Part shown: one piece after another, positions 28,417 to 33,780 of the stretch
How the letters are laid out: each line of letters starts with the position of its first letter
Numbering within the stretch: the first letter of the stretch is position 1
NCBI GenBank assembly: GCA_965116475.1
Contig: OZ220691.1
Location: 256,001-320,000, forward strand
Direction: 5' to 3'
DNA: 64,000 bases
From: Gemmatimonadota bacterium
GTDB taxonomy: Bacteria; Gemmatimonadota; Gemmatimonadetes; Palauibacterales; Palauibacteraceae
Translations under genes and position numbers: made by a program
Notes under the pieces: model-generated
Database searches by the model: none
What the model saw: the letters and a program-made list of their open reading frames with translations, nothing else
What the model was told of the DNA's origin: nothing

Positions 28417-28815
28417 CTATCCGACGGTTCGGACCAGTCCGGACTCGATGATGCGGCGGTCCCGGGTCAGAAGCGTGGCGCCCAGGGCCCTGGCCGTCGC
28501 GACGATCGTCCTGTCCGCGGGATCGCGGTGGAACGAATCCGGCAGGGCCGCGATCTCCGAAGCGATGGCCGGCGATATCCCCTGCCGCCGAACCAGCGGA
28601 GGCGCCACGGCCTTCTCCAGCCAGTCGCGCAGCGGGATCGACAGCCGGATCCGGCCGAGACCGCACAGCGTCGCCACCTCCAGGAGAGAAATATCCGAAA
28701 CGATCAGGGGCGTCCGGCCGTCGGCCGCTTCGATGATCTCCCGTTGGGCCGCGGAGAGGCGACCCGAATCCTCGAACCACCAGATCAGGATGTGCGTGTC
28801 CAGCAGCGGCGTCAC
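28417..28815 (-). CDS. vapC: PIN-domain (VapC) toxin
   Basis: LLDTHILIWW, SDISLLEV, FHRDPADRTIVATA, LLTRD. Confidence 0.93.
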   Translation of the reverse strand: MTPLLDTHILIWWFEDSGRLSAAQREIIEAADGRTPLIVSDISLLEVATLCGLGRIRLSIPLRDWLEKAVAPPLVRRQGISPAIASEIAALPDSFHRDPADRTIVATARALGATLLTRDRRIIESGLVRTVG

Positions 28816-29051
28816 TTCCCCAGCATCTCCCAGTGTTCCTCGGGAATCGCCGGCCCGACGATATCGCCGTGCACGGTAACGGTCCCGATCAACTCCTCCT
28901 GCGGGTACTCGGAGGCGGAATGGCTTGGCGGGACAAGTTCGGCGACCGGCCGACCCCGTTTCAGGATGACGATCCGTTCACCGGTATCGCGCACCCTGTC
29001 GAGGATCGCCAGGCACCTGGCTTTGAAGTCGGAAGCGTTGATCGTTTCCAT
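28812..29051 (-). CDS. Phd/YefM-family antitoxin
   Basis: INASDFKARCLAILDRV...IVILKRGRPVAELVP; GTGA overlap with the toxin. Confidence 0.92.
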   Translation of the reverse strand: METINASDFKARCLAILDRVRDTGERIVILKRGRPVAELVPPSHSASEYPQEELIGTVTVHGDIVGPAIPEEHWEMLGK

Positions 29052-29087
29052 ATGACCAGACTTGACGACCAGTCATCCGATTGTCAA
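29052..29087 (-). promoter_or_regulatory. Toxin-antitoxin promoter/operator, probably leaderless
   Basis: Perfect TTGACA begins 36 nt upstream of the ATG; no SD; GACCAG direct repeats and a TGAC-N5-GTCA inverted repeat in between. Confidence 0.55.
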
Positions 29088-29152
29088 CCCTCGGCTCCTC
29101 CGAGTCCTGGTATTGGTTTGGCGGAGGAGGACGCGCGCGTTACGGTGGGGGC

Positions 29153-30604
29153 ATGGAACACGCTCAGCTTCCATCGGACGGTCTCGTGGTCGTCGTCAAG
29201 CGGGACTGCCCTACCTGCCAACTCGTCGAACCCGCGCTTGAGCGGCTCGCGGCCGACCCCGGCGGCCTGGCCGTCTTCAGCCAGGACGACCCGGGCTTCC
29301 CCGCCGCCGTCCCGGGTGTCATCGACGACACGGCACTCGAACACTCGTTCCGGCTCGACGTAGAGACGGTTCCCACGCTCGTGCGCTTCGAGGGCGGGCA
29401 AGAGGTGGGCCGCGCGGTGGGGTGGAACCGGGCGGAGTGGCGCGACCTGACGTCGACGCCGGACCTGGGCGCGGAACTGCCCGAGTTCCAGCCGGGCTGC
29501 GGTTCCCGGTCCGTGGAACCCGGCGCGGCGGAGCGGCTGCGGGCGCGCTTCGGCGAGACCGGCATCGAAGCGCGACAGGTGGCGCTGGACCCGCATGCGG
29601 ACGCCGTGGAGGCCTGCTTCGAGCGCGGGTGGACGGACGGACTGCCCGTCGTCCCGCCGACTCCGGAGCGGATCCTGCGCATGCTCGCGGGCACGCCCCG
29701 GGCTCCGGACGAGGTCGTGGGCGCGGTGCCGCCGGACTACGCGGAGTGCACGGTCGAGAAGGTGGCGATCAACGCCGTGCTCGCGGGCTGCAAACCGGAG
29801 TACATGCCCGTCCTGCTCGCCGCGCTCGAGGCCGCGCTCGACCCGGGCTTCACGCTGCACGGCATTCTGTGCAGCACGTGCTTCACGTCGCCTCTCATCA
29901 TCGTCAACGGCCCCATCGCCCGCCGCATCGGGATGAACGCGGGACTCAACGTCCTCGGGCAGGGGAACCGAGCCAACGCCACCATCGGCCGGGCGCTCAA
30001 CCTCATCGTGCGCAACGTCGGCGGCGGCCGGCCCGGCGAGATCGACCGATCCACCTTCGGGGCGCCGAGCAAGTACACGTTCTGCTTCGCGGAGGACGAG
30101 TCGGACGACGAATGGGAGCCGCTCTCGGTGGCGCGCGGCCTCCCGCGCGGGGCCAGCGCCGTCACGCTCTTCCAGGGCGAGGGCGTGCAGGGGGTCATGG
30201 ACCAGCGCTCCCGCACGCCCGAGGAGTTGACCGCGTCGCTGGCGGCGTGCCTGCTGGCCGTCTGCCACCCGAAGATCTGCGAGTGGGCGCACGCGGTGCT
30301 GCTCCTTTCGCCGGAGCATTACGGTATCTACCGGGCGGCGGGCTGGGACCGGGCGCGGATCACCAAGGCGCTGCTCGAGGCGACGACGCGGCCGCTGAGC
30401 GAGGTGGCGCGCGGCGCGGGAGGCCTCGCCGAGGGCGTGCCGGATTCGGAGACGCGCCGCCACGTGCCCAAGTTCCTGCCCGGTGGACTGCTCCTCGCCC
30501 GGGCCGGCGGCGCGGCCGGACTGTACTCCGCCATCCTGGCCGGCTGGCCCGGCGGCCGCGCCTGGCAGCACTCATACCCCATCACGAGAGAGATCGACAC
30601 ATGA
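29153..30604 (+). CDS. Thioredoxin-like (CPTC) domain fused to a UGSC-partner domain
   Basis: VVKRDCPTC...VPTLV Trx-like fold; PGCGS; GWTDGLPVVPPT, EKVAINAVLAGCKPEY, LCSTC, ANATIGRAL; ATGA overlap with the selenoprotein. Confidence 0.8.
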   Translation: MEHAQLPSDGLVVVVKRDCPTCQLVEPALERLAADPGGLAVFSQDDPGFPAAVPGVIDDTALEHSFRLDVETVPTLVRFEGGQEVGRAVGWNRAEWRDLTSTPDLGAELPEFQPGCGSRSVEPGAAERLRARFGETGIEARQVALDPHADAVEACFERGWTDGLPVVPPTPERILRMLAGTPRAPDEVVGAVPPDYAECTVEKVAINAVLAGCKPEYMPVLLAALEAALDPGFTLHGILCSTCFTSPLIIVNGPIARRIGMNAGLNVLGQGNRANATIGRALNLIVRNVGGGRPGEIDRSTFGAPSKYTFCFAEDESDDEWEPLSVARGLPRGASAVTLFQGEGVQGVMDQRSRTPEELTASLAACLLAVCHPKICEWAHAVLLLSPEHYGIYRAAGWDRARITKALLEATTRPLSEVARGAGGLAEGVPDSETRRHVPKFLPGGLLLARAGGAAGLYSAILAGWPGGRAWQHSYPITREIDT

Positions 30605-31164
30605 CCGCTCCGACCGCGGGCAGCCCTCCGACACCGGCGACGCCGGCGACTGTCCTCCACGACCCCACCTCCGAACTCGCCCCCGAGATGCGCCCGCGGC
30701 GCGCGCCTCCTCCGTCGCTCGAAGGACGGGTGGTGGCGCTCCAGGGGATCGGAAAGCTCCGCAGCGACGAGTTCCTCGACCACGTGAAGGCGCGGCTCGA
30801 AGCGCGCGGCATCGCGACGATCCGCACCGACAAGCCGACCAACGCCCGGCGGGCATCGACCGAACTCCTGCAGAGGATCGCCACCGAGGCCGATGTCGTG
30901 GTGCAGGCGCTGGCCGATTGAGGGTCCTGCACGTCGTGCGGTCTGCACGACCTCAGAGACCTCGATGAACGCGGGATCCCCGGCTGCTTCGTCGTCACGA
31001 CCGAGTTCGAGGAAGCCGCGCGCAGCCAGTCCCGCTCGCTCGGCTTCGAGCCCGGCATCGTCTGGGTCCCGCACCCGATCCAGAACCGCACCGCGGCGGA
31101 ACTCGAGGCGCTGGCCGAGGAGGCGATCGACCCGATTCTGGCCATGATCACCACCACGGACTGA
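30601..31164 (+). CDS. UGSC-family selenoprotein (187 aa, Sec107 encoded by TGA 30919-30921)
   Basis: Reading through the TGA gives ...VVVQALAD-U-GSCTSCGLHDLRDLDERGIPGCFVVTTEF...PHPIQNRT...TTTD*; SECIS-like hairpin follows. Confidence 0.9.
30933..30951 (+). other. Bacterial SECIS element
   Basis: GTCGTGC-GGTCT-GCACGAC, a perfect 7-bp stem starting 11 nt after the UGA; GGUCU loop as in the E. coli fdhF SECIS. Confidence 0.85.
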
Positions 31165-31309
31165 CCCCGACTGATCCCCCGGCGGTCCGACCGGCCGGGC
31201 CGGACCGTCTCTCGCGGGCGCGTGCCCGGAACCCTCGGACTTGCTCACGGCGTCGAAAGCCGTCTATTTGGCAGCAGCAGGATCGAGACTGAAACAGCCA
31301 GGAGGCCGC

Positions 31310-32617
31310 ATGCCGACCCGCCGACGATTCCTCGCCCGCCTCGGGGGCTCCGCCGCAGCCGCCGGAGCCATGACCATGGTTCCCACGAAGTGGAGCACCG
31401 CAGTCGCGGCGGCCCGCGACCTGTCCCGCACGCCCGGCTCCGCCGAGGAGATCGCGCGCGACGAGGAGTTCTGGCTCGAGATCCAGAAGGCGTTCACCAC
31501 CGACCGTTCCCTCGTCAACCTCAATAACGGGGGCGTGAGCCCGACGCCCGCCCACGTGCTCGAGGCGATGAAGCGGGACCTCGACTTCGCGAACCAGATC
31601 CCGGTCTACAACGGGTGGCAGATCCTCGAGCCGCAGCGGGAGGGCGTCCGCGCCCGGCTCGCCCGGCAGTGGGACGTGGACCCGGAGGAAGTCGCGATCA
31701 CGCGCAACGCCTCGGAGGGCCTCCAGATCCTCCAGAACGGGTACGACCTCGAGCGCGGCGACGAAGTCGTGACGACGACCCAGGACTACGGGCGCATGAT
31801 CACGACGTTCCAGCAGCGCGAGCGCCGCGAGGGGATCGTCATGAAGCAGTTCAAGATCCCGGTCCCGGCCGAGGATCCGGCCGAGATCGTGCGGCTGTTC
31901 GAGGAGCAGATCACCGACCGCACGCGGCTCATCCTCATGTGCCACATGATCAACATCACCGGGCAGATCCTCCCCGTGCGCGAGGTCGTGGAGATGGCGC
32001 GCGGCTACGGCGTGCCCGTCCTCGTTGACGGCGCGCACTCGCTCGCGCACCACGACTTCACCCTCTCCGAACTGAACTGCGACAACTACGCCGTGAGCCT
32101 GCACAAGTGGCTCCACGCCCCGGTCGGGACCGGCCTCCTCTACGTGAGGCGGGAGAAGATCCCCGAGATCTGGCCGCTGCAGGCCGCGCCCGAGAGCAGC
32201 AATGACGACATCCGCAAGTTCGAGGCGATCGGCACGCACCCCGAGGCCAACTTCCTCGCCATCGGCGAAGCGCTCACCTTCCACCAGCTCGTCGGCGGCG
32301 AGCGCAAGGAGGCGCGCCTCGTCCACCTGCGGAACTACTGGGCCGAGCAGCTCCTCGAGCACGACCGCTTGCGGCTCAACACGAGCCTCAAACCGGGCCT
32401 CGCGTGCGGGATCGCCAACGTCCAGGTCGAGGGCATCGACACGAGCGCGCTCCGCAACTGGCTGTGGAACCGGCACCGCATCTTCACGGTCGGCATCAAC
32501 CACGCCGAGTTCACGGGCCTGCGCATCTCGCCGTCCACCTACACGACGATCGAGGAACTCGACCGCTTCGTGGACGCGATGACCCGCGCGGTGAAGCACG
32601 GCATCCCCGCCTCATGA
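31310..32617 (+). CDS. Tat-exported class V PLP-dependent enzyme (isopenicillin N epimerase-like)
   Basis: TRRRFL Tat motif; NLNNGGVSPTP, TRNASEG, VDGAHS, SLHKW PLP lysine, LRISP. Confidence 0.88.
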   Translation: MPTRRRFLARLGGSAAAAGAMTMVPTKWSTAVAAARDLSRTPGSAEEIARDEEFWLEIQKAFTTDRSLVNLNNGGVSPTPAHVLEAMKRDLDFANQIPVYNGWQILEPQREGVRARLARQWDVDPEEVAITRNASEGLQILQNGYDLERGDEVVTTTQDYGRMITTFQQRERREGIVMKQFKIPVPAEDPAEIVRLFEEQITDRTRLILMCHMINITGQILPVREVVEMARGYGVPVLVDGAHSLAHHDFTLSELNCDNYAVSLHKWLHAPVGTGLLYVRREKIPEIWPLQAAPESSNDDIRKFEAIGTHPEANFLAIGEALTFHQLVGGERKEARLVHLRNYWAEQLLEHDRLRLNTSLKPGLACGIANVQVEGIDTSALRNWLWNRHRIFTVGINHAEFTGLRISPSTYTTIEELDRFVDAMTRAVKHGIPAS

Positions 32618-33780
32618 CCGAGACCTTTGACATGGCCTTGATTCAGCGTGGGGCGCGGCTCCGCCGTTCGCCGTACTTCGAGGCCACGCTCCGGGACGGG
32701 TGCCGGAGCTATACGGTCTACAATCACATGTTTCTCCCGACGCGCTACGACGACCTCCACGCGGAGTACGAGAAGCTCCTGAACGGGGTCACGGTGTGGG
32801 ACGTGAGCGTCGAGCGGCAGGTGGAGATCACCGGGCCGGACGCCTTCGAGTTCACGAACCTGCTCACGCCCCGGGACCTCTCGAAGTGCGCCGTCGGGCA
32901 GGGCAAGTACGTCCTCATCGGGGCCGACGACGGGGGCATCGTGAACGACCCGGTGCTGCTGCGCCTGGGCGAGAACCACTTCTGGCTCGCGCTGGCGGAC
33001 AGCGACGTGCTGCTGTACGCGAAGGGGATCGCGCTCAACGCCGGCCTCGATGTCGAGATCCGCGAGCCGGACGTCTCTCCCATGCAGGTGCAGGGCCCGA
33101 AGTCGAAGGAAGTCGTGCGCCGGCTGTTCGGGGACGACGTCGTCGAGCTGCGCTACTACTGGTTTCTGGAGACGGACCTGGATGGCATCCCCGTGGTCGT
33201 GACCCGCACGGGGTGGAGCGGCGAGGTCGGCTACGAGATCTACCTGCGGGACGGAAGCCGGGGCGTCGAACTCTGGGACCGCGTGATGGAGGCGGGCCGC
33301 GACCTGGGCATCTCTCCCACCGGCCCGTCCGACATCCGCCGCATCGAAGCCGGTATCCTCAACTACGGCATCGACATGACGCTGGACACGAACCCGTACG
33401 AGGTCGGGCTCGGCTGGCAGGTCGACTTCGACCAGGAGGGCGACTTCATCGGCCGCGAGGCACTGGCCCGGATCGCCGAGGCGGGGCCCCGCCGGCTCCT
33501 CGCCGGCGTTGAAATCTCGGGCGCGCCGCTCGACCTGAACATGGACCGCTGGCCCGTACACGGCGGCGGCGGCGCGAACGGGGACACCGGCGTGATCGGA
33601 TTCGTCACGTCCGCCGTGTATTCGCCGCGTCTCGGGAAGAACATCGGCTACACCCTCGTCCCGGCCGCGGCCGGGGAGCTTGGCACGCGCCTGGCCGTGA
33701 CGACGCCGCACGGGGAGCGGGACGCCGTCGTGGTGCCCCGGCCCTTCGTGGATCCCCGCAAGGAGATCCCGAAGTCCTAG
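32614..33780 (+). CDS. GcvT-family THF-dependent aminomethyltransferase/demethylase, DmdA-like
   Basis: RLRRSPY...YTVYNHMFLP...WDVSVERQVEITGPDA...TPRDL, LADSD, EPDVSPMQVQGPK, RIEAG. Confidence 0.85.
   Translation: MTETFDMALIQRGARLRRSPYFEATLRDGCRSYTVYNHMFLPTRYDDLHAEYEKLLNGVTVWDVSVERQVEITGPDAFEFTNLLTPRDLSKCAVGQGKYVLIGADDGGIVNDPVLLRLGENHFWLALADSDVLLYAKGIALNAGLDVEIREPDVSPMQVQGPKSKEVVRRLFGDDVVELRYYWFLETDLDGIPVVVTRTGWSGEVGYEIYLRDGSRGVELWDRVMEAGRDLGISPTGPSDIRRIEAGILNYGIDMTLDTNPYEVGLGWQVDFDQEGDFIGREALARIAEAGPRRLLAGVEISGAPLDLNMDRWPVHGGGGANGDTGVIGFVTSAVYSPRLGKNIGYTLVPAAAGELGTRLAVTTPHGERDAVVVPRPFVDPRKEIPKS

Follow-up and report, generated by a model that had tools for sequence, protein, structure and literature searches.

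How is a TGA triplet to be read when it interrupts a frame that stays open on both sides of it? The question is raised by a locus in a 64,000-nt stretch of the genome of a Gemmatimonadota bacterium (Palauibacteraceae; GenBank assembly GCA_965116475.1, contig OZ220691.1, positions 256,001 to 320,000 of the forward strand). This whole stretch is called the window hereafter, and coordinates refer to it unless stated otherwise. On its plus strand, a frame that opens with ATG at 30601 runs to the residues ALAD, meets TGA at 30919..30921 and then continues for a further 80 open codons until a second TGA at 31162..31164. An earlier note on this DNA had taken the interruption as the mark of a hidden selenoprotein. 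Our results point to the same decoding: the gene at 30601..31164 (187 codons plus stop) would encode a 187-residue selenoprotein of the UGSC family, in which a selenocysteine insertion sequence (SECIS) recodes the in-frame UGA to selenocysteine (Sec) and which forms a redox module with the product of the upstream gene. Going by the sequence data, we hold this to be the best explanation, with a probability of about 0.93. The claim that a selenoprotein gene is present thus stands, but the gene is not hidden in the sense of new, as it belongs to a published and curated family. Its kind and the bacterial mechanism of its decoding are both known, and since the UGSC family has been in print since 2008, we describe it as a mis-called member of that kind.

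Reading through the in-frame UGA

Inspection of the sequence bore out the description of the reading frame given in the earlier note, in which the listed open reading frame ends at ALAD and another 80 codons are open in that frame, up to 31164. Translation through the TGA yields D-U-G-S-C-T-S-C, which contains the UxxCxxC motif that had also been noted (U107-G-S-C110-T-S-C113, 30919..30939, plus strand), with the putative selenocysteine at codon 107. By itself, the open frame past the UGA is weak evidence because of the chance rate in this G+C-rich window: the G+C content is 69.5%, and 80 or more extra open codons follow 36% of the window TGA stops that close open stretches of at least 100 codons. 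The hairpin behind the TGA is rarer. A perfect hairpin with a 7-bp stem and a 5-nt loop beginning 11 nt past the triplet occurs after only 1 of the 1174 TGA trinucleotides on both strands of the window, namely the one at 30919..30921, and the same hairpin is the only one of the window's 34 perfect 7/5/7 hairpins that carries GGTCT as its loop. The decisive support for recoding comes from the comparative data, ahead of these chance statistics.

UGSC family membership and conservation of codon 107

The read-through protein matched the Pfam family PF24696 (UGSC) with 118 bits, where the gathering score is 25 bits, and residues 19-184 aligned with positions 2-171 of the 172-position profile, across the UGA. 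With U scored as C, it also reached 120 bits against the NCBIfam family NF041046, 'UGSC family (seleno)protein', and covered positions 2-146 of the 147 in that profile. Each half taken separately was also recognized by the UGSC profile, the part before the UGA with E 1.6e-8 and the part after it with E 1.5e-17. PF24696 was matched by 24/24 sequences of our UGSC alignment, for which Pfam gave nothing besides UGSC.

A protein search returned 56 relatives of the read-through protein. Those of close similarity (81-97% identity) break off at the UGA after 103-121 aa, and the names that sources give them, where there are any, are 'hypothetical protein' from Gemmatimonadota metagenome-assembled genomes. 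Gene-calling pipelines do cut the gene at the UGA, as had been foreseen. The alignment was built with 23 full-length homologues of 169-198 aa and 27-56% identity. All 23 carry the cysteine opposite U107 that a selenoprotein would lead one to look for, and they do so inside an invariant D-C-G-S-C. D106, C/U107, G108, S109 and C110 are invariant throughout the alignment, and C113 is lost in distant homologues.

At the genome level, a UGSC gene with exactly one in-frame TGA was present in 30 of 61 genomes, namely the source genome and 29 of the 35 others from its genus, and no UGSC gene was found in the 25 genomes from other genera of the family and order. The sequence D-TGA-G-S-C-T-S-C can be read in 30/30 genus carriers, and none of them has a further stop in the 80 codons after the TGA.

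These data bear on two other readings of the triplet. One is that the TGA is a real stop and the locus a pseudogene or a pair of fragments, one of 106 aa and a remainder that is not translated. Such a reading would agree with the gene callers, which end the proteins of close relatives near 103-107 aa, and with the 36% chance rate given above; yet the 80 codons past the TGA match the C-terminal half of UGSC on their own and are kept free of stops in 30/30 genomes, and both a conserved SECIS and the machinery for Sec insertion are present (see below). We therefore consider a real stop very improbable. In the other, TGC or TGT has been misread or misassembled as TGA, and the gene is an ordinary Cys form. 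This assembly is probably not free of errors, as at least one indel, that in selD, suggests; but codon 107 is TGA in thirty independent assemblies of the genus and TGC or TGT in none of them, which effectively excludes a sequencing error. In addition, the SECIS hairpin is specific to TGA carriers and absent from most Cys forms. Among the readings of this codon, an error is the least probable.

The family itself is well documented. A UGSC-containing selenoprotein family was described as a major one, and among the most abundant, in the GOS ocean metagenomes, with 255 Sec sequences, 21 Cys homologues and a U-x-x-C motif, and some of its forms are fused to a domain listed there as unknown (Zhang and Gladyshev 2008, PMC2398784, in excerpt). 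UGSC is also listed in a 2022 review (PMC9312934, in excerpt), and a 2026 review lists it together with NF041046 and, in the sections available, calls the functions of such families largely uncharacterised (PMC13188914). The window protein resembles this family in its U-G-S-C motif, in its length of about 185 aa and in having Cys-form homologues, and it matches the profile over the full length. It differs in scoring 5 bits below the NF041046 cut-off and in belonging to a Gemmatimonadota clade whose database entries are all cut at the UGA. What is particular to this case is thus a clade that is uniformly mis-called and lies just under the NCBIfam cut-off, so that annotation will go on missing it.

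The SECIS hairpin

The apical hairpin (30933..30951, plus strand) consists of a perfect 7-bp stem, GTCGTGC (30933-30939) pairing with GCACGAC (30945-30951), and a GGUCU loop (GGTCT, 30940-30944), and starts 11 nt past the UGA, exactly as the earlier note had read it. In the minimum-free-energy structure, it is embedded in an extended, imperfect helix (30917..30966, plus strand), the lower stem of which takes in the UGA. The 51 nt beginning with the UGA fold with -21.9 kcal/mol (z = -2.52; 5 of 200 shuffles were as good), and a 61-nt cut gave only z = -1.56.

An alignment of the 72 nt that surround the UGA covered the 30 genus genomes, among which 27 distinct sequences occur. The GGTCT loop is invariant in 27/27 of them, and at six of the seven apical positions every sequence has a standard base pair. 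At pair 24-36, 23 sequences have G-C and 4 have A-U, and none shows an unpaired intermediate; in the A-U state, both codons involved have changed synonymously at the third position (TCG to TCA, CAC to CAT). The remaining pair, 21-39, is G-C in 24 sequences, G-U in 2 and unpaired in 1. The pairs of the lower stem are partly conserved, and several break in 10-16 of the 27 sequences.

The Cys-form homologues, which encode nearly the same peptide, served as a control that is free of within-genus relatedness. All seven stem positions can pair in 26/27 distinct Sec forms but in only 9/79 distinct Cys forms, and the GGTCT loop occurs in 27/27 versus 0/79. The mean fold energy is -20.4 kcal/mol for the Sec forms and -12.3 kcal/mol for the Cys forms, at G+C contents of 0.66 and 0.63, respectively. 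The loop codons GGT CTG (30940-30945) encode Gly-Leu in all Sec forms, whereas the Cys forms mostly have Ser-Thr at this place. Two amino acids of UGSC thus seem to be set by the RNA element.

The earlier note had likened the hairpin to the SECIS of E. coli fdhF. In E. coli, a minimal upper stem-loop 11 nt from the UGA is sufficient, and SelB is contacted by the G and U of the loop and by a bulged U. Comparison with the E. coli K-12 fdhF sequence supported the likeness in part: in both, the upper stem follows the UGA after 11 nt and GGTCT has an identical offset from it, and the two elements have the 9-mer GGTCTGCAC in common. The bulged U has no counterpart: when folded, the upper stem of fdhF leaves one U unpaired and closes a 4-nt loop, and that of the window has seven perfect base pairs and a 5-nt loop. 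The window hairpin probably works like the fdhF SECIS; with its perfect 7-bp stem and no bulged U, it is not a copy of it. A search of Rfam gave no family matching the hairpin region, with chance-level matches alone (E >= 2).

Taken together, the pattern across Sec and Cys forms argues that the in-frame UGA is a genuine selenocysteine codon, at which gene callers cut the UGSC-family gene short. By analogy to E. coli fdhF, the hairpin at 30933-30951 would recruit SelB and Sec-tRNA(Sec), so that UGA107 would be decoded as selenocysteine.

Selenocysteine machinery in the source genome

Decoding of this kind implies a selA/selB/selC/selD system elsewhere in the genome, and the prediction to this effect was borne out in the source genome, a single contig of 3.62 Mb. 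selA scored 491 bits against a cut-off of 267.9 and contains no stops, selB scored 372.6 bits against 242.25, and a tRNA-Sec was found with 79.7 bits against a gathering score of 47 and with the anticodon TCA (ARAGORN). These three genes are intact, and selD is present in a form that is split in this assembly. It is of the Sec type, having an in-frame UGA of its own in G-A-G-U-A-C-K, and here, too, the SECIS stem starts 11 nt past the UGA.

Compared with the three same-genus genomes aligned, selD of the source genome has an extra base in a G/C run at about 176,970-176,980 of the contig, outside the window. A one-piece Sec-type selD is found in 53 relatives. The site is crossed by four contigs from public runs (two each from two runs, representing the whole depth there), and none of them has the extra base, so that the frameshift is most likely an assembly indel. 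The contig of a third run does not reach across the site, and a fourth run, of raw Hi-C reads, placed no reads there; neither was counted.

With this machinery in place, we considered whether the UGA might be read through with a residue other than Sec, either by near-cognate Trp or Cys insertion or under a reassigned code. The dedicated tRNA-Sec, SelA and SelB and a hairpin with the spacing and loop of the fdhF type speak for Sec instead. Furthermore, the code is not reassigned, because 219 of 315 long open stretches in the window close with TGA, more than with any other stop. No specific observation favours another residue, and we rate its insertion as improbable as a real stop.

In five relatives (G004, G009, G018, G024 and G030), the selD match lies without a TGA in open frames of 749-985 aa. 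This suggests a Cys-type SelD fused to another domain, comparable to the Ndh-SelD fusions mentioned in the excerpted text of PMC2398784. Three of the five, G004, G009 and G018, still carry a Sec-form UGSC gene.

A conserved upstream partner gene

Directly upstream of the UGSC gene lies a gene for a protein of 483 aa (29153..30604, plus strand), the stop codon of which overlaps the UGSC start codon by 4 nt (ATGA). The corresponding open reading frame is listed from a TTG at 29081. In homologues, only 5-30 residues precede the CxxC motif, which indicates the ATG at 29153, and not the TTG, as the start. The encoded protein combines an N-terminal thioredoxin-fold domain bearing CPTC with a Cys-rich domain of about 370 aa, which matched no Pfam or NCBIfam family.

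In 109 of 110 loci, the UGSC gene has a homologue of this partner next to it in the same orientation (30/30 loci of the same genus and 79/80 Cys-form loci from Pseudomonadota, Bacteroidota, Actinomycetota and others); the single exception is locus L113. In 65 of the Cys-form loci, the partner is directly upstream and, with few exceptions due to contig-end cuts or partial matches, nearly the whole protein is covered at 57-66% identity. The remaining 14 are distant loci (Actinomycetota and others) in which the large domain occurs alone, without the thioredoxin domain and at 35-44% identity, downstream of UGSC in 9 and upstream in 5. The distant Cys-form group also includes UGSC fused to a flavoprotein resembling thioredoxin reductase (TrxR).

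The N-terminal domain of the partner was recognized as a thioredoxin fold with an invariant CxxC (Z 9.8, root-mean-square deviation (rmsd) 1.9 over 87 residues). Because the large domain was modelled poorly, the fold search reported this domain only, and a sequence search of the PDB likewise found thioredoxins only, on the N-terminal domain. In a first alignment, Cys 116, 213, 240, 243 and 311 of the large domain were invariant; in a second, C240 was only nearly invariant, and C243 appeared on neither list. The mean column identity of the large domain is 72%. The partner has at least 8000 relatives, and source databases name it 'thioredoxin family protein', as in Candidatus Palauibacter sp. 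at 90% identity.

Fusions and neighbours extend the picture. Three Cys-form proteins of 521-537 aa join UGSC to a flavoprotein that resembles TrxR and bears a CGTC motif, and a Variovorax plasmid has genes for the partner domain and for a Cys-form UGSC, with trxB two genes upstream of them. Atlas clusters for the partner domain are unannotated; in one similar cluster, 16% of the members carry PF24696, a sign that fused forms may exist. These may be a counterpart of the 'UGSC/Unknown_1' fusion named in the excerpt of PMC2398784.

Predicted fold and proposed function

The AlphaFold2 model of the UGSC protein (predicted local distance difference test (pLDDT) score 93.9) shows five consecutive beta-alpha units. 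In the model, U107 lies between the strand 99-105 and the helix 108-123, which places U-x-x-C at the N-terminus of a helix. Structural matches were generic, covering flavodoxin-like, Rossmann-like, TIR and receiver domains with Foldseek TM of at most 0.48; the best VIA match had Z 12.3 and rmsd 3.1 over 132 residues. Neither a thioredoxin nor a specific relative was among the structural matches listed, and a sequence search of the PDB gave no relative (best E 0.23). Going by the matches listed, the predicted fold looks flavodoxin-like, whereas the available part of the 2008 paper calls it 'likely Trx-like' (PMC2398784).

We propose that U107 and C110 would form a selenol/thiol centre that cycles through a selenenylsulfide. 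UGSC is most likely one half of a two-gene module with its translationally coupled upstream partner, and the electrons would ultimately come from a flavoprotein of the thioredoxin reductase type. Such a module would resemble thioredoxin/thioredoxin reductase systems in that a helix begins with a redox-active U/C-x-x-C, that the partner carries its CxxC in a thioredoxin fold and that UGSC-TrxR-like fusions occur. It would depart from them in that UGSC is not predicted to have a thioredoxin fold and that the partner has the extra 370-aa domain without a known family.

Instead of carrying electrons, UGSC could be the catalytic Sec subunit of a substrate reductase similar to protein B of the glycine and proline reductases, with the large domain of the partner binding the substrate. 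Weak matches among the 24 UGSC members hint in this direction: 17 matched GrdB (TIGR01917, best E 5.1e-5), 17 GrdF, 14 GrdH, 9 TIGR01918 and 2 PrdB, and all these matches fall in the region with the U-x-x-C motif, which is also tabulated for GrdB and PrdB in a review (PMC9312934, in excerpt). The high conservation of the large domain of the partner, with several invariant cysteines, would fit as well. However, the scores amount to 13-17 bits against cut-offs of 600-800 and reflect local similarity only, of UGSC residues 80-164 to profile positions of about 320-400. Pfam gave no GRDB match for UGSC members, and the partner did not match the GrdE or PrdA families. Thus, GrdB, GrdF, GrdH and PrdB, which belong to the glycine, sarcosine, betaine and D-proline reductases, share with UGSC the U-x-x-C motif and a weak similarity around it in 17/24 members, whereas they are about 430 aa long compared with about 185 aa for UGSC, which lacks their N-terminal two thirds, and a pyruvoyl partner like GrdE or PrdA was not detected for UGSC. 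We found no solved PrdB or GrdB structure, and the available text of PMC11229817 mentions neither PDB nor cryo-EM. On balance, a role as substrate-reductase subunit seems rather unlikely.

UGSC and its partner could constitute a widespread two-component selenol/thiol reductase of aerobic marine and soil bacteria, fed by a flavoprotein of the TrxR type, with UGSC as a free-standing relative of the Sec domain of protein B; we put this forward tentatively, as a possibility that we would not bet on.

Weighing the selenoprotein reading

Several points speak against the reading of the locus as a UGSC selenoprotein gene within a redox module. The NF041046 score of 120 bits is below the curated cut-off of 125 bits, and a six-frame search with this profile gave 103-123 bits in all 30 genus carriers, placing 0/30 above it. 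The cut-off is a naming threshold and not a biological feature; as it was missed, the assignment to UGSC is based on the motif, on the alignment over the whole length and on the score in Pfam. The z-scores of the hairpin energy are modest, at -1.56 to -2.52, and the hairpin is without the bulged U that is present in the folded fdhF stem. The compensatory change at pair 24-36 may represent one to three independent events, because the genus genomes are related. In this assembly, the 1-nt insertion splits selD into two frames, and the public-run contigs covering selD may stem from near-identical strains and not from the source strain. Finally, the model of the partner is poor (whole-model pLDDT 68, with long stretches below 50 in the large domain), and the functional part of the reading is based on gene neighbourhood, fusions and a predicted model.

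Beyond what the earlier note contained, the analysis adds the conserved partner, the TrxR-like fusions, the predicted flavodoxin-like fold and the weak GrdB-like similarity. The partner gene, the fusions, the model and the weak similarity provide handles for work in culturable hosts of the Cys form, among which are isolates of Bradyrhizobium, Methylobacterium, Xanthobacter, Rhodoplanes and Elioraea. The UGSC result leaves knowledge of Sec decoding itself unchanged. We regard the added value as moderate: it lies in the conserved two-gene module, the selenoprotein itself being already known as a family.

Surroundings of the probable module

A scan of 28800-31400 for promoters and terminators found none. 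Upstream of the module, on the minus strand (28417-29051), genes for a PIN-domain (VapC-like) protein and a Phd/YefM antitoxin overlap by 4 nt and form a type II toxin-antitoxin pair. Downstream, on the plus strand (31310-33780), a gene for a class-V aminotransferase (PvdN/SufS-like) is followed by one for a GcvT-type aminomethyltransferase, the ATG of which, at 32614, overlaps the preceding stop (ATGA). We considered the class-V aminotransferase as a further part of the module and rejected it: within the flank examined, it is present in 18/30 loci of the same genus and in 0/80 Cys-form loci, and the aminotransferase and aminomethyltransferase are kept as a pair in these same proportions. The N-terminal RRRFLARLG of the aminotransferase looks like a twin-arginine signal.

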